From assembly GCA_017435665.1 (NCBI GenBank), contig JAFSEP010000051.1, forward strand, positions 1-15,705: 15,705 bases of DNA, in the 5' to 3' direction. The notes under the pieces are model-generated. The model ran no database searches. It saw only the letters and a program-made list of their open reading frames with translations, and was not told the origin of the DNA. The translations under genes and the position numbers were made by a program. Below are positions 2,392-6,273 of the stretch, piece by piece. Each line of letters starts with the position of its first letter. Within the stretch, counting starts at the first letter, position 1. The DNA is from Clostridia bacterium. GTDB taxonomy: Bacteria; Bacillota; Clostridia; Oscillospirales; Acutalibacteraceae.

Positions 2392-2495
2392 CTTCCCCTC
2401 AGGGGGAGCTGGATTTGACGAAGTCAAATACTGAGGGGGTGTACCGCCCGCAGTCGTGGGCGGTGTGCGGCGAAGCCGCACAGATAAACCGAAGT
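2392..2495. repeat. GC-rich structured intergenic element. A two-tier hairpin is followed by REP-like double hairpin copy A.
   Basis: CCCCTCAG (2395-2402) pairs with CTGAGGGG (2431-2438) and encloses ATTTGAC-GAA-GTCAAAT (2413-2429). Two further hairpins follow: ACCGCCC...GGGCGGT and GTGCGGC-GAA-GCCGCAC. Bases 2442-2494 are the reverse complement of 9733-9785 (49 of 53 positions by hand alignment). Confidence 0.8.
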
Positions 2496-3635: not shown

Positions 3636-3665
3636 AACAAACGTAATAAAAAAGGAGTGAAAAAA

Positions 3666-4295
3666 TTGTTCTACACATCAAAATCAATCGCATACTATGA
3701 CAGTATGCCCAAAGAAAAGGACTTCGATATTGACGAGGCCTGCAGTGTGTTTTTCAATTGGAAGGATGCAACCATTGAAAATGCCAAAGAATATGAAAAC
3801 AGAATCAGGAAGTTAAAATTGTTAAAAGTAATGAAGTCTATTATGGATAATGAGCTGACACCGACTCAGAAAGACATAGTAAGACTTCATTATTTTGAAA
3901 ATAAGAACGGCGAAGAAATTGCCGGAATGTACGGGATAAACCGTTCAACAGTCAGCAGAATGCTCAGTAAAACAGAAAGCATAATAAGGGAGCATATGAA
4001 GTATGTATTTGAGTACTCTGAGCTTGACCTGAGTGAAGAAGCACCGCCCGTAACAGTGGCAAGAGCGATTGCCTTCATAACTGCAGACAGCGCAAAGGCG
4101 GACAGCATAGGAAAGCGCATACGGAAAGCAAGAGAATCAAAGCTGCTTACACAGGAGCAGGTTGCAGCAGCAACAGGCATGACGGCGCAACGACTGGAGA
4201 TGATTGAAAAAAGTGGAAATTTGACAGTTCAGGAATTGATGAAGCTGATATTTTTCTTTTCCGTCAGCGCTGACTATATTATATACGGCGTGTGA
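3666..4295 (+). CDS. Dual-HTH DNA-binding protein: a sigma-70 region-4-like HTH fused to a C-terminal XRE-family HTH
   Basis: The segment LTPTQKDIVRLHYFENKNGEEIAGMYGINRSTVSRMLSKTESIIREHM looks like sigma70_r4 / YlxM-type HTH. The segment IGKRIRKARESKLLTQEQVAAATGMTAQRLEMIEKSGNLTVQELMKLIFFFSVSADYIIYG looks like HTH_3 (XRE). The start is uncertain. TTG 3666 lies 8 nt after AAAGGAG (3651-3657). The ORF-track GTG 3657 overlaps that RBS. ATG 3705 has no RBS. Confidence 0.7.
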   Translation: MFYTSKSIAYYDSMPKEKDFDIDEACSVFFNWKDATIENAKEYENRIRKLKLLKVMKSIMDNELTPTQKDIVRLHYFENKNGEEIAGMYGINRSTVSRMLSKTESIIREHMKYVFEYSELDLSEEAPPVTVARAIAFITADSAKADSIGKRIRKARESKLLTQEQVAAATGMTAQRLEMIEKSGNLTVQELMKLIFFFSVSADYIIYGV

Positions 4296-4309: not shown

Positions 4310-4522
4310 ATGAGTGATCTTAGAAATCTCAGAGATACATATGCCGACTGCATCGAAAGGCAGAAGCAGGTAATTTCAATTAACCGGGCAAAGCTGAACC
4401 TGGCTGTTAAAAGCTGTAATTTTGAGGAAATGAGGCGTCTCAGACGGGTGCTTAATGTTTTATACGATGAGCAGGCAGAGCTTGAATACCTGTATAAATG
4501 TCTGGGGAAATATGTGGGGTAA
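4310..4522 (+). CDS. Small (70 aa) predicted all-helical protein, hypothetical, in an operon with the dual-HTH gene
   Basis: ATG 4310 is preceded by GGGAGGAG (4296-4303), which begins 1 nt after the upstream TGA (4293-4295). The heptad-like charged sequence has no family I recognise. The ORF-track GTG 4292 overlaps the upstream stop and lacks an RBS. Confidence 0.6.
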   Translation: MSDLRNLRDTYADCIERQKQVISINRAKLNLAVKSCNFEEMRRLRRVLNVLYDEQAELEYLYKCLGKYVG

Positions 4523-4526
4523 ATGA

Positions 4527-4552
4527 AACCGGGAGCCGAAAGGCTCCCGGTT
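4527..4552. terminator. Bidirectional terminator between convergent genes
   Basis: AACCGGGAGCC (4527-4537), loop GAAA, GGCTCCCGGTT (4542-4552): a perfect 11-bp stem. GTTGTTGTTT follows on the plus strand. Confidence 0.8.
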
Positions 4553-4557
4553 GTTGT

Positions 4558-5106
4558 TTAATAAATATCTACTTTATCACACTTCCCCTTAACAAACTCC
4601 GAAAAGCTCTCATACTGTTCCTTTGACTCAAAGCAATTCAGGGGGAGTACGTATGCAAGAAGGTTGTTGATGTGAATGTATATAACCTTGCCGTCAACAA
4701 AGCTGATTCGTTCTATCGCCGAATACCTCTGCTCGGTTTTGTTGTCGGGGGTTATTTCGGTGAAGCAATCCTCATAAAATTCCATAACGGAATCGGGTGA
4801 ATAGCAGGGCTTTCCGCTTTTCTTCATCATTTTAAGCTGTCCCTTCAGCGACCATGCAAGAAAACGCTTGCAGACAGCCTGCATTATAATATAGAGAATT
4901 GCCAGAGGAATAACCGCAGTCAGCAGATACTCTGCAGAGAGGCCACCGACAATCAGAGAAAGCAGAACAGATGCCCCGAAAAGAACGGTAAGTGAAATCC
5001 TGAGATTTCTCAGCTGTTTTTTACCGTAAGGAGAACGTATAAGCTGAAATTTGTTGTATTCCAGATAATCCTCATCGGTCATTATTACATTAAATCGGTA
5101 TTTCAT
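4558..5106 (-). CDS. YcxB-like membrane protein (two central TM helices)
   Basis: 182 aa. The N-terminus MTDEDYLEYNKFQL, the central hydrophobic pair and the C-terminal ISFVDGKVIYIHINNLLAYVLPLNCFESKEQYESFSEFV fit the YcxB family pattern as I remember it. RBS AAGGAG is 8 nt upstream of ATG 5106. Confidence 0.6.
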   Translation of the reverse strand: MKYRFNVIMTDEDYLEYNKFQLIRSPYGKKQLRNLRISLTVLFGASVLLSLIVGGLSAEYLLTAVIPLAILYIIMQAVCKRFLAWSLKGQLKMMKKSGKPCYSPDSVMEFYEDCFTEITPDNKTEQRYSAIERISFVDGKVIYIHINNLLAYVLPLNCFESKEQYESFSEFVKGKCDKVDIY

Positions 5107-5333
5107 ATTATCACTCCTTGGGGGGATTATAGCATAAACTTAGAAATAAATCAATGCGAAGCATTGTATATCATCAATACCGAAGGAATTGTATATCATC
5201 AAAACTTTTGTTTTGTATATCATCAAGCCGACAGAAATGCACACTTCGTGTGATGATATACGCCTTAGGCGATGATATACACGACTGCGTCGTGATGATA
5301 TACCAAGCCTGTCGGCTTGGATAAAAAAAGAAC
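5104..5333. repeat. Complex repeat module, copy 1 (promoter and 5' UTR plus a 3+3 box array with interleaved hairpins)
   Basis: Homologous to 5744-5993. GTATATCATCA boxes lie at 5166-5176, 5191-5201 and 5215-5225. TGATGATATAC boxes lie at 5251-5261, 5270-5280 (first base C) and 5293-5303. Flanking hairpins are AATGC-GAA-GCATT (5153-5165) and CCAAGCC-TGTC-GGCTTGG (5303-5320). Every inter-box spacer is self-complementary. Confidence 0.9.
5126..5154 (-). promoter_or_regulatory. Promoter of the YcxB-like gene (inside repeat copy 1)
   Basis: The minus strand reads TTGATT (5154-5149), 17-nt spacer, TGC-TATAAT (extended -10; TATAAT = 5131-5126). CCCCCCAAGGAG and the ATG follow. Confidence 0.65.
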
Positions 5334-5356
5334 TGGGCGAAAACCGAGGATTTTCC

Positions 5357-5746
5357 TTACTTTTTATCAAAATACTGCTTGTATTCCCATTCTTGCATTA
5401 ACATTTTTAACGCCTCATCCTCTGTGCCAAAAAAGGAATATGCAAACGAGCGATCCATTGGGTTCCACCAAGCAGGAATGGCATTTTCTTGGTTGCAAAT
5501 ATACATCCACTCTTCTTCATCAAAAACACATAATTCCTCATATGTATATTTGTAATATCCGTTAACATTTTTTAAAAGAATAAATCTTTTTGTTTTTTCT
5601 TCATTGTAAATAACTCTTATCACTTGCATATCTTCTGAAAAAGATAAACTTTTATCAAACATCATTTCAACAATTTCAGAAAAAGGGGGTATTGGAGGGA
5701 CATTAGCTTTTATCTTTTTATTGAATATTTTTGAAAACAAGTTCAC
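5357..5746 (-). CDS. Hypothetical cytoplasmic protein (129 aa), strongly AT-rich gene
   Basis: GTG start at 5746 with AAGGCGG upstream. There is no TM segment or signal peptide and no motif I recognise. It is rich in W/Y/E (EEWMYICNQENAIPAWWNP). Its composition is visibly more AT-rich than the flanking core genes. Confidence 0.55.
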   Translation of the reverse strand: MNLFSKIFNKKIKANVPPIPPFSEIVEMMFDKSLSFSEDMQVIRVIYNEEKTKRFILLKNVNGYYKYTYEELCVFDEEEWMYICNQENAIPAWWNPMDRSFAYSFFGTEDEALKMLMQEWEYKQYFDKK

Positions 5747-5993
5747 TATATCACCGCCTTGAGTGTATTATAGCATAAAAGCGAAAACAAATCAATGCGA
5801 AGCATTGTATATCATCAGTTCCGAAGGAATTGCATATCATCAACTTCGTAAGAAGTTGTATATCATCAAGCCGACGGTTTTTTATGCACACCTAAAGGTG
5901 TGATGAGATACAAATGCGACTTGTCGCATTTGATGATATACACGTTATTGCGTGATGATATACCAAGCCTGTCGGCTTGGATAAAAAAAGAAC
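5744..5993. repeat. Complex repeat module, copy 2
   Basis: Boxes lie at 5807-5817, 5832-5842 (GCATATCATCA), 5858-5868, 5901-5911 (TGATGAGATAC), 5931-5941 and 5953-5963. The flanking hairpins and the right end ...CCAAGCCTGTCGGCTTGGATAAAAAAAGAAC are identical to copy 1. The spacers differ in sequence but are again hairpins. Confidence 0.9.
5767..5795 (-). promoter_or_regulatory. Promoter of the 129-aa ORF (inside repeat copy 2)
   Basis: The minus strand reads TTGATT (5795-5790), 17-nt spacer, TGC-TATAAT (TATAAT = 5772-5767). The geometry is the same as in copy 1. Confidence 0.65.
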
Positions 5994-6016
5994 GAAGCGA
6001 TTGCTTCGTTCTTTTT
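5983..6016 (-). terminator. Terminator of tRNA-Thr (the hairpin is symmetric, so it could act in both directions)
   Basis: GAACGAAGC (5990-5998), loop GATT, GCTTCGTTC (6003-6011), flanked by an A-tract on one side and a T-tract on the other. It starts directly after the tRNA CCA end. Confidence 0.8.
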
Positions 6017-6092
<76 letters not shown>

Positions 6093-6113
6093 GTATAAAA
6101 TTTATGCTTGATT

Positions 6114-6142
6114 ATTATACATATTTATTATATAAATGTCAA
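6114..6142 (-). promoter_or_regulatory. Promoter of tRNA-Thr with perfect consensus hexamers
   Basis: The minus strand reads TTGACA (6142-6137), 17-nt spacer, TATAAT (6119-6114). The -10 ends 21 nt upstream of the mature tRNA 5' end. Confidence 0.7.
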
Positions 6143-6211
6143 GTGTTTTTAATGCAAAATCGGCATATCTGCTGTGGGCATTATTATAAACAGGGGCTTT
6201 GTGCCGAAAAC

Positions 6212-6240
6212 TTGCAATATGACAAAACATAGTGTATAAT
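6212..6240 (+). promoter_or_regulatory. Promoter of the LRR protein gene
   Basis: TTGCAA (6212-6217), 17-nt spacer, TATAAT (6235-6240). An RBS-like AGAGGAAAG lies upstream of ATG 6274. Confidence 0.6.
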
Positions 6241-6273
6241 CATATTATAATATCCTGACAAAGAGGAAAGAAT

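Follow-up and report, generated by a model that had tools for sequence, protein, structure and literature searches.

The 15,705-nucleotide (nt) contig JAFSEP010000051.1 of a Clostridia bacterium (assembly GCA_017435665.1, Acutalibacteraceae), in the following called the window, contains two tandem copies of an intergenic module (copy 1, 5116–5343; copy 2, 5744–5993), which lie behind a tRNA-Thr gene reading toward them and each precede a minus-strand gene (Table 1). Each copy comprises three forward GTATATCATCA boxes followed by three inverted ones, and every spacer is a hairpin. If one mismatch is allowed, the window contains 13 boxes (0.30 expected; 13 were reached in 0 of 200 shuffles), 12 of them inside the two modules. 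Common to both copies are the stretch up to the start codon of the minus-strand gene, the promoter-like site TTGATT-17-TATAAT and the right end ...GGCTTGGATAAAAAAAGAAC. The −35 element of the copy 2 site overlaps the outermost hairpin and a partial box, and the 3' arm and T-run of the terminator behind the tRNA (5981–6016) form the tRNA-side edge of the repeated unit. A first-pass annotation of the DNA had described the untranslated region, promoter, six boxes (two with single substitutions) and ends of copy 2, all of which were located. The long-range complement with a wobble that it had proposed was identified as AAGCCGACGG / CTGTCGGCTT with one G.T pair. The hairpins said to replace those of copy 1 are likewise all present; only AAATGCGAC-TT-GTCGCATTT cannot form as drawn and must open to a loop of 4 nt, which leaves 8 pairs.

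The element is one copy of a widespread intergenic module of approximately 190 bases found in gut and rumen Clostridia of the Oscillospirales type. One genome per species (185,579 species) was scanned for two boxes 8–24 nt apart. At least 120 loci with an adjacent perfect box pair were obtained, compared with about one expected by chance (596 Gb, two strands, 17 gap lengths, 22 fixed bases). Among the loci listed, nearly all carriers are metagenome-assembled Clostridia of animal guts (Acutalibacteraceae, Oscillospiraceae, "Eubacteriales"). The three-plus-three layout (+++---) recurs with spacings of about 19–31, 19–31, 32–47, 19–31 and 19–31 nt, and 43 modules have all six boxes at no more than one mismatch each. 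Some loci carry one-directional arrays of 7–12 units built through local duplication, with expansions reaching 9–12 units. The module as a whole is an imperfect, dyad-symmetric inverted repeat, whose ends were determined from 48 aligned modules as TTTATCC-hairpin and hairpin-GATT. A scan of viral contigs for the module returned only unrelated tandem or coding repeats and no true module, and it was not found by blastn against plasmid and phage collections; an origin from phages or plasmids is thus unsupported.

The spacers are under selection for pairing. A contiguous Watson–Crick stem of at least 4 bp is present in 67% of 433 spacers from 121 sources, but in only 3.1% of shuffled spacers, so that five hairpins in the five spacers of a single copy are far beyond chance. 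The spacer palindromes are 8–20 nt long and highly variable (248 distinct among 433), drawn from a repertoire common to several species, and modules of one genome differ in hairpin sequence yet keep the pairing. Covariation was assessed in 76 distinct box-spacer-box units with 12-nt spacers and in the 48 whole modules, aligned in tRNA direction. In the 76 units, 97.6% of the cells of the six-pair stem, which reaches one base into the box on either side, are paired (69.7% in shuffles, 26–40% in slid registers), and 130 cells are changed on both sides where 34.8 were expected. For the final base of the box itself, covariation with the final base of the spacer was detected. G.U/G.T pairs (10 of 456 cells) are as scarce as true mismatches (11 of 456). 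In the whole modules, every hairpin helix contains one to five double-change pairs (four in helix 1, the terminal hairpin).

The same holds for the long-range stem, in which four of six arm pairs are double-changed. The centre segment matches the 5' arm and loop of the terminal hairpin of its own module over a mean of 8.3 nt, but that of a different module over 4.3 nt, and the complement tracks the terminal hairpin type across loci. The first-pass annotation had read the exchange of hairpin sequences between the two copies as selection on a folded single strand, a pattern that a plain array of double-stranded DNA operators would not predict, and had proposed a covariation test on additional copies against a null model. 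Both claims stand, as pairing is kept and compensatory changes are in excess, and its reservation about the statistical weakness of only two copies is now lifted. Either strand folds much better than shuffled sequence (z about −7 to −8), and three box-to-box helices dominate the predicted minimum-free-energy folds of both. Such a box-to-box "ladder" is unproven rather than rejected: it is not demonstrated, because none of 19 pairs between partner boxes shows a compensatory change in the 48 modules and the boxes are nearly invariant. The conserved, position-specific box variants (box 3 GTATCTCATCA in 28 modules, box 5 ...ATGC in 20, box 6 GGATG... in 13) have no matching change in the partner box.

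The module is oriented and not functionally symmetric. A tRNA gene reads into 50 of 89 two-armed modules at a distance of 52–106 nt from the first box. In 43 of the 50 the gap is 52–62 nt, which is just the terminator. These tRNAs represent 23 anticodons, and none stands in the opposite orientation. The half with the terminal hairpin and the closing stem (half A) always faces the tRNA, and the other half (half B) always faces the promoter. Behind a group of several tRNAs or an rRNA operon, the module comes after the final gene; modules without an adjacent tRNA still follow a terminator or just its 3' arm. In tRNA direction, the order is therefore the last tRNA; a terminator of A-run, hairpin and T-run, with ATCC; the terminal hairpin; three units of GTATATCATCA plus hairpin; the central hairpin and centre segment; three units of TGATGATATAC plus hairpin; and a partial box, which is the −35 element of the next gene. 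The junction of terminator and ATCC recurs in other loci, and homology between loci begins inside the 3' arm of the terminator. In many loci, the −35 element of a near-consensus promoter is made up of a partial box and the outermost hairpin of the promoter-proximal half. In the window and in the other loci, no promoter leading into the module was recognized; the only recognizable promoter points away from it.

Table 1. Features of the two module copies in the window, and modules with other boxes in related loci
Feature	Position	Strand	Details
Copy 2, half B (promoter-proximal)	5793–5868	+	boxes 5807–5817, 5832–5842, 5858–5868; hairpins 5816–5832, 5841–5858
Copy 2, outermost hairpin of half B	5793–5807	+	CAATGC-GAA-GCATTG
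Copy 2, forward box with one substitution	5832–5842	+	GCATATCATCA
Copy 2, centre segment	5868–5877		AAGCCGACGG; complementary to CTGTCGGCTT (5969–5978), one G.T; long-range stem enclosing half A
Copy 2, central hairpin	5887–5902		CACACC-TAAA-GGTGTG; position kept in 48 modules
Copy 2, half A (tRNA-proximal)	5901–5963	−	three GTATATCATCA boxes on the minus strand: 5953–5963, 5931–5941, 5901–5911
Copy 2, hairpins of half A	5941–5954, 5911–5932		
Copy 2, inverted box with one substitution	5901–5911		TGATGAGATAC
Copy 2, terminal hairpin	5963–5980	−	CCAAGCC-GACA-GGCTTGG; 5' arm and loop complementary to centre segment
Bidirectional intrinsic terminator	5981–6016		A-run, GAACGAAGC / GCTTCGTTC stem, T-run; directly after tRNA 3' end
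tRNA-Thr(GGT)	6017–6092	−	reads toward module; ARAGORN; Rfam tRNA 70.4 bits
Copy 2, promoter-like site	5767–5795	−	TTGATT-17-(TG)TATAAT, directed away from boxes
Copy 2, downstream gene	5357–5746	−	129-amino-acid (aa) orphan protein; no Pfam family above cut-off
Copy 1, boxes, hairpins and tRNA-side remnant	5149–5343		
Copy 1, forward boxes	5166–5176, 5191–5201, 5215–5225		
Copy 1, inverted boxes	5251–5261, 5270–5280, 5293–5303		
Copy 1, terminal hairpin	5304–5321		
Copy 1, tRNA-side remnant	5322–5343		T-run and only the 3' arm of a terminator (GTTC)
Copy 1, promoter-like site	5126–5154	−	TTGATT-17-TATAAT
Copy 1, downstream gene	4558–5106	−	182-aa YcxB-like protein
Modules with other boxes	L011:1656–3660; L023:6170–6288; L017:349–514; L080:6516–6659; L108:5840–5988; L152:5448–5560; L156:4221–4384		loci other than the window

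Two conventional explanations for the window copies were rejected. An open reading frame (ORF) of 56 aa spans copy 1 (5154–5324), but a coding origin was rejected because the spacer lengths are not multiples of three and the ORF stops early in copy 2. An array of intrinsic terminators is likewise unsupported, since the unit hairpins run into TGTATATCATC or TGATGATATAC and not directly into a U-run. Among 10 terminator-like sites listed for positions 4400–6400, the modules contributed only the two promoter-side hairpins and the central hairpin of copy 1, all with weak tails; the genuine terminator (5990–6016) was not listed because its T-run lacks a T-rich window of 8 bases. Parts of the module show resemblances, all of them partial matches only, to a DnaA box (TTATCCA, tRNA-side end), an integration host factor site (WATCAA) and a pC194-type nick site (CTTGATA). 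The terminators themselves are variable. Between orthologous loci, the stem of the tRNA terminator is swapped for an unrelated one while A-run and T-run stay (L015:6800–6850, L096 and L023), and one stem (CCGACAAGT...ACTTGTCGG) recurs in more than one species and behind more than one tRNA. Several metagenome contigs of the species of the window (L124–L126, L129 and L130) end at the junction of tRNA-Thr and module, about 227–385 nt upstream of the LRR gene, which is consistent with a module or tRNA that is repeated in the genome and breaks assemblies. A comparison at strain level was uninformative, as contigs with an identical LRR protein show the same two-module layout or break at the module; a look-up of the helix–turn–helix (HTH) protein for the same purpose gave no record.

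A permissive Rfam scan of the window gave a single meaningful match, the Gut-1 motif (RF01706), at 5230–5306 (+), the half of copy 1 that contains the inverted boxes. The score (28.0 bits, E = 0.003) is below the gathering threshold of 50, but the match covers positions 1–77 of 77 and places hairpins on hairpins and boxes on linkers. Copy 2 had no match even at E ≤ 10, and none at the gathering threshold was obtained in 18 other module loci. Gut-1 is a 77-nt candidate small RNA (sRNA) from human gut metagenomes, described without function, context or two-armed architecture and graded "certainly RNA" from covariation (Weinberg et al., 2010, PMC2864571). The flanks of its seed sequences show the 3' end of a tRNA and a terminator, together with a closing stem formed over a long range and a further set of boxes in inverted orientation, an arrangement that the publication (PMC2864571) does not describe, and in two loci (L152 and L156) the super-architecture of the module stands behind tRNAs in the Gut-1-type form. 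Like the module, Gut-1 has three variable, covarying hairpins parted by a short conserved linker, and the box cores are related (GUGAAAU / GUGAUAUU in Gut-1, GAUGAUAUAC in the module; common core TGAWAT). It differs in the linker, which is (G)UGAAAU in Gut-1 and (U)GAUGAUAUAC / GUAUAUCAUCA, with a box of 11 nt, in the module; in the polarity of the units, which diverge in Gut-1 and converge on the centre in the module; and in the loops, which are UUCG in Gut-1 and GNA or GNRA in the module. The uncharacterized Gut-1 is the nearest relative known, but only a distant one, and the module formally belongs to no described family. A literature search returned nothing relevant on the box sequence or on follow-up work on Gut-1.

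Further box families (AGTGATA, AATGAAGT, ATGAATTG, TATGAAA, TGAAATA, TGAAATC, GTGAAAT and others; core RTGAW) were found in the same genomes by a generic detector. Among them, both orders of box orientation occur, and some lie in the next intergenic region after a GTATATCATCA module. Homologues of the 129-aa protein in other species are encoded beside genuine Gut-1-type modules with GTGAAAT or ATGAAATA boxes behind tRNA clusters. A few Gut-1-type arrays with GTGAAAT boxes and hairpin spacers, one with three inverted boxes, are present in IMG/VR contigs classed as viral (L234 at about 3692, L194:9817, L230:456), while most of the other 119 IMG/VR pattern matches are ordinary tandem or coding repeats.

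Whether the selected fold is one of DNA or of RNA can be approached through the loops. On the tRNA-sense strand, those of half A have the form C-G..A-G in 29 cases and C-T..C-G in 2, whereas the respective numbers for half B are 0 and 43. A single transcript would hold half of its hairpins in the unfavoured polarity, while duplex DNA offers both strands, so the flip argues against one RNA. The most frequent triloop is C-GNA-G (73 of 148), and GNRA tetraloops occur in 27 distinct units. In the promoter hairpins of phage N4, extrusion requires a C:G closing pair and a loop with 5' G and 3' A; these hairpins extrude at a superhelical density of −0.035 in vitro and depend on gyrase in vivo (PMC4496689). 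The module hairpins, with C:G closure and 5'G...A3' loops, correspond to these requirements. The rarity of G.U/G.T pairs is unusual for a structured RNA. Because the loop polarity flips, G·U pairs are rare and no promoter feeds the module, a DNA element is favoured over a single RNA; from the sequence data, we consider DNA slightly better than an even prospect and RNA a distinctly weaker one.

The reading we place first, still tentatively and short of an even chance, is that of a boundary module at the ends of stable-RNA operons that acts as DNA, bears boxes and extrudes hairpins, and that would also be a fragile junction for gene exchange. The anatomy, orientation and position of the module, the selection for pairing, the varied downstream genes and the turnover of units are documented by the data; the DNA level, the extrusion, a box-binding factor and the boundary role we infer. 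Short G+C-rich palindromes of this kind, flanked by A+T-rich boxes, are known to extrude from negatively supercoiled duplex as small hairpins, and they would also fold on transiently single-stranded DNA. Extrusion would bring the invariant boxes to a fixed, close spacing whatever the spacer length, and the closely spaced boxes could then be read by a putative box-specific factor. As a structured boundary, the module would in this way separate a stable-RNA operon under heavy transcription from the promoter that follows, and the boundary may at the same time be a fragile site, prone to recombination, at which downstream genes are swapped and units come and go.

Several observations weigh against this proposal. 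No binding protein, recombinase or transposase was identified. Gut-1 carries C-UUCG-G loops, which stabilize RNA but not DNA (PMC2864571), on the tRNA-sense strand of the same half, which makes an RNA reading of the tRNA-proximal half coherent across both families, and the GNRA tetraloops of the module suit RNA equally well. One box-box position is U.G on the tRNA-sense strand in 22 of 48 modules, which only RNA or that strand tolerates. In addition, since the units converge in the module and diverge in Gut-1-type elements, a simple model of direction relative to the flanking genes cannot accommodate both; a directional terminator or insulator for incoming transcription was dropped because the units of the Gut-1-type relatives run the other way in this context. 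A role as boundary or in topology is suggested only by the position of the module and by analogy to enterobacterial palindromic repeats.

The strongest competitor, possible but doubtful, is a Gut-1-like sRNA: the tRNA-proximal half or the whole module would be transcribed by read-through from the tRNA or from an unrecognized promoter and fold into a closing stem with three or four hairpins, whose single-stranded boxes bind a protein or another RNA. The full-length, sub-threshold Gut-1 match, the shared super-architecture behind tRNAs in the Gut-1 seed flanks and in L152 and L156, and the "certainly RNA" grade speak for this, as do the GNRA and UUCG loops on the tRNA-sense strand within the half that the covarying closing stem encloses, the U.G position and the folding of both strands. 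However, a strong terminator lies immediately upstream and the sole recognizable promoter points away, the second half has the flipped loop polarity, C-GNA-G triloops dominate, G.U pairs are scarce, and six identical boxes in one RNA would invite misfolding. Moreover, the authors of Gut-1 later stated that their method, being a sequence analysis, cannot assign such motifs to RNA or single-stranded DNA and that a pattern of ORF, motif and ORF, noted for another motif, is typical of integron attC sites (PMC5737381).

Gene content changes at the module. Clustered by sequence, the ORFs that come first behind 61 modules form 48 groups, among them housekeeping genes (coaE, tatD, mutL), small orphans and YcxB-like proteins. 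A single family recurs, PF05635 (23S_rRNA_IVP, an Avd-like four-helix bundle of about 115 aa), which accounts for 13 of the 61. In three related species, the same tRNA-Gln cluster and module are followed by three different genes; the hairpin of the terminator has been exchanged, one of the species carries an additional unit of box and hairpin, and homology stops right after TTGATTT. Loci L007 and L110 are alike over 4.8 kb on the side of the downstream gene (89% identity), and the other side is unrelated; their homology starts inside the 3' arm of the terminator, and one 23-nt unit is missing. A tRNA-Arg gene and a module are found in both L017 and L043, where the flanks are 70% identical and the 85-aa downstream gene 97%. 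L017 has an extra PF05635 gene (1456–1815), absent in L043, placed exactly between the promoter region of the module and the ribosome-binding site of the next gene. In 17 of 128 loci, modules occupy at least two consecutive intergenic regions, sometimes with different box families (L011). The variability of downstream genes and the turnover of box-hairpin units are thus directly visible in these comparisons.

The PF05635 gene (L017:1456–1815; L152:4632–4982; L153:4632–4982) looks like an insertion unit of its own. The 129-aa orphan (5357–5746, −) belongs to a family of at least 65 protein clusters with 47–98% identity, whose members in L152–L158 are found behind tRNA clusters, within arrays of small ORFs that lack annotation. 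In L154, the family gene adjoins genes for MobA/MobL, ParB_N and a large serine recombinase, which suggests that the family also travels on mobile elements. The downstream proteins had no PADLOC match, and the idea of a defence island was abandoned. Neighbouring genes in the window encode EF-Tu, a permease, a 2-hydroxyacid dehydrogenase, a sigma70_r4/HTH protein, YcxB, LRR_5, homoserine dehydrogenase, AI-2E, PI-PLC and Oxidored_FMN proteins. The sigma70_r4/HTH gene (3657–4295, +; 212 aa, sigma-70 region 4 and HTH_3 of the XRE type) converges on the distal end of the array formed by the two modules and their genes. A second intergenic repeat of 51 nt is present at 2444–2494 (+) and, inverted, at 9733–9783 (94% complementary between the copies), in the gap between the permease and the ldhA-like gene and in that between the AI-2E transporter and PI-PLC. 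Two G+C-rich hairpins, one of them GTGCGGC-GAA-GCCGCAC with a C-GAA-G loop, followed by AGATAAACC, make up this repeat, and matches were obtained only in contigs of the same species.

This turnover could also be explained by attC-like recombination sites of a tRNA-anchored cassette array, an account that we regard as unlikely. Single-stranded DNA of the module would fold and be recognized by its shape and boxes, and an unlinked recombinase would swap cassettes of module plus gene. In an extended form, which we consider no more probable, the GTATATCATCA, Gut-1-type and other RTGAW-box modules would all be junction sites of a previously unrecognized, integrase-unlinked cassette system at the 3' ends of tRNA and rRNA operons. 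The single strand would then form a chain of perfect four-way junctions, box helices with a hairpin on either side, recognized by shape and box, and genes bounded by modules would be traded both inside a species and across species. Consistent with attC-like sites are the series module-ORF-module-ORF behind one tRNA in the window, the loci with consecutive modules of sometimes mixed box families, the diversity of the downstream ORFs, the end of synteny at the module edges, the 85-aa gene that is far more conserved than its flanks, the homologues of the 129-aa gene in small-ORF arrays next to Gut-1-type modules, and the attC-like order of ORF, motif and ORF. On the other hand, no integrase or recombinase was detected beside most arrays or in the window (for IntI and other recombinases, the whole 15.7 kb were covered; among the downstream-side ORFs none stood out, with only eight first-gene representatives Pfam-scanned). 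Housekeeping genes are among the downstream genes, the breakpoints are at the outer module edges without a defined internal crossover, and neither an empty site nor a circular junction was observed. No empty orthologous site was present among the available syntenic loci, and a metagenome scan with the homoserine dehydrogenase found no relatives. Ordinary homologous recombination anchored on the conserved tRNA plus module could give the same pattern.

Still less probable is a selfish, non-autonomous repeat without host function, such as a miniature inverted-repeat transposable element or a repeat of the enterobacterial palindromic type, mobilized by a hairpin-recognizing transposase and landing at terminator hairpins. 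Several copies per genome with contigs breaking at the module, the dyad symmetry of the whole module with ends resembling terminal inverted repeats (TTTATCC-hairpin ... hairpin-GATT), the constant position behind a terminator, the unit expansions and the coexisting box families would fit. But copies of one genome differ in their hairpins and still pair, unlike the near-identity left by a recent burst, and the position-specific box variants and hairpin sizes are conserved over many species. The flanking T-run and T-rich promoter spacer mask any target-site duplication, so that none is recognizable. No transposase of the Y1/HUH or the REP-associated tyrosine (RAYT) type was found in about 1 Mb around the modules, in a weak test by tblastn with an IS200-type TnpA query, and the module is missing from the phage, plasmid and viral collections. 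The least probable explanation is a plain array of six transcription factor sites on double-stranded DNA that control the adjacent promoter, with incidental hairpins: the identical boxes, three plus three inverted, directly upstream of a near-consensus promoter whose −35 element overlaps the module, and the position-specific variants agree with it, whereas the covarying palindromic spacers, the spacings of 19–31 bp, which are not helically phased because the spacers range from 8 to 20 nt, the fixed place behind tRNA terminators and the functional incoherence of the downstream genes are left unexplained.

With these results, the orphan Gut-1 motif class, listed since 2010 without a function, gains a context and an anatomy: its members are two-armed, oriented modules at the ends of stable-RNA operons that mark changes of gene content between related gut and rumen Clostridia. 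If it acts as DNA, the module would be one of the few natural cases in which a DNA structure of several hairpins is clearly under purifying selection, and it may provide a new handle on the insulation of highly transcribed operons or on the shuffling of accessory genes in uncultured Firmicutes; as RNA, it would constitute an abundant and unstudied sRNA class. The question of RNA or DNA is directly testable because more than 100 natural variants are in hand.

Among known systems, CRISPR arrays are defined by direct repeats of 23–50 nt, unique, non-palindromic spacers of similar length and cas genes. The module was rejected as such an array, as its repeats measure 11 nt and occur in two orientations, the spacers are palindromes of 8–20 nt from a cross-species repertoire, and the Rfam scan at the gathering threshold returned no CRISPR family. 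The pneumococcal BOX and the neisserial Correia elements are modular, structured intergenic repeats with a variable number of internal units, which can supply or modify adjacent promoters. The module shares the structure, the variable unit number and the contribution to a promoter, but the sequences are unrelated, the BOX and Correia stems are conserved rather than covarying, and these elements are not associated with tRNA terminators. In enterobacteria, repetitive extragenic palindromes (REPs) are arranged in bacterial interspersed mosaic elements (BIMEs) in alternating orientation, with short conserved linkers and variable unit number, after the 3' ends of transcription units. Roles in DNA topology via gyrase binding and as hot spots of recombination or insertion have been proposed for them. 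Clustered palindromes with conserved linkers at transcription unit ends and a variable unit number are also found in the module. However, the palindrome, with a conserved tetranucleotide at its flank and a cognate RAYT transposase, is conserved and the linkers vary in REP/BIME, whereas the box, which corresponds to the linker, is invariant and the palindromes vary in the module. REPs also show nothing equivalent to the fixed orientation of the module and its association with the ends of tRNA operons.

The attC site of integrons is a folded single-stranded DNA, a single imperfect hairpin in which pairing is conserved and sequence is not. The module likewise keeps pairing without sequence and recurs between consecutive, diverse, co-oriented ORFs, in the window as two modules and two ORFs. 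The core pair RYYYAAC ... GTTRRRY of attC is not present at the ends of the 48 aligned modules, and in contrast to attC the module has multiple hairpins and six invariant boxes, stands upstream of each gene, adds a promoter element and belongs to an array anchored at a tRNA. A further parallel is provided by the hairpins in the early promoters of phage N4, with a stem of 5–7 bp, a loop of 3 nt and a strand asymmetry of loop stability (PMC4496689). Small hairpins with C:G closure and a 5'G/3'A loop are common to both, and in the module the stem bases vary freely if paired. The N4 hairpins, however, are single, are themselves promoters of a phage RNA polymerase and have conserved stem bases, whereas the module presents arrays of 7–8 free-stem hairpins on alternating strands beside an ordinary promoter of the sigma-70 type.

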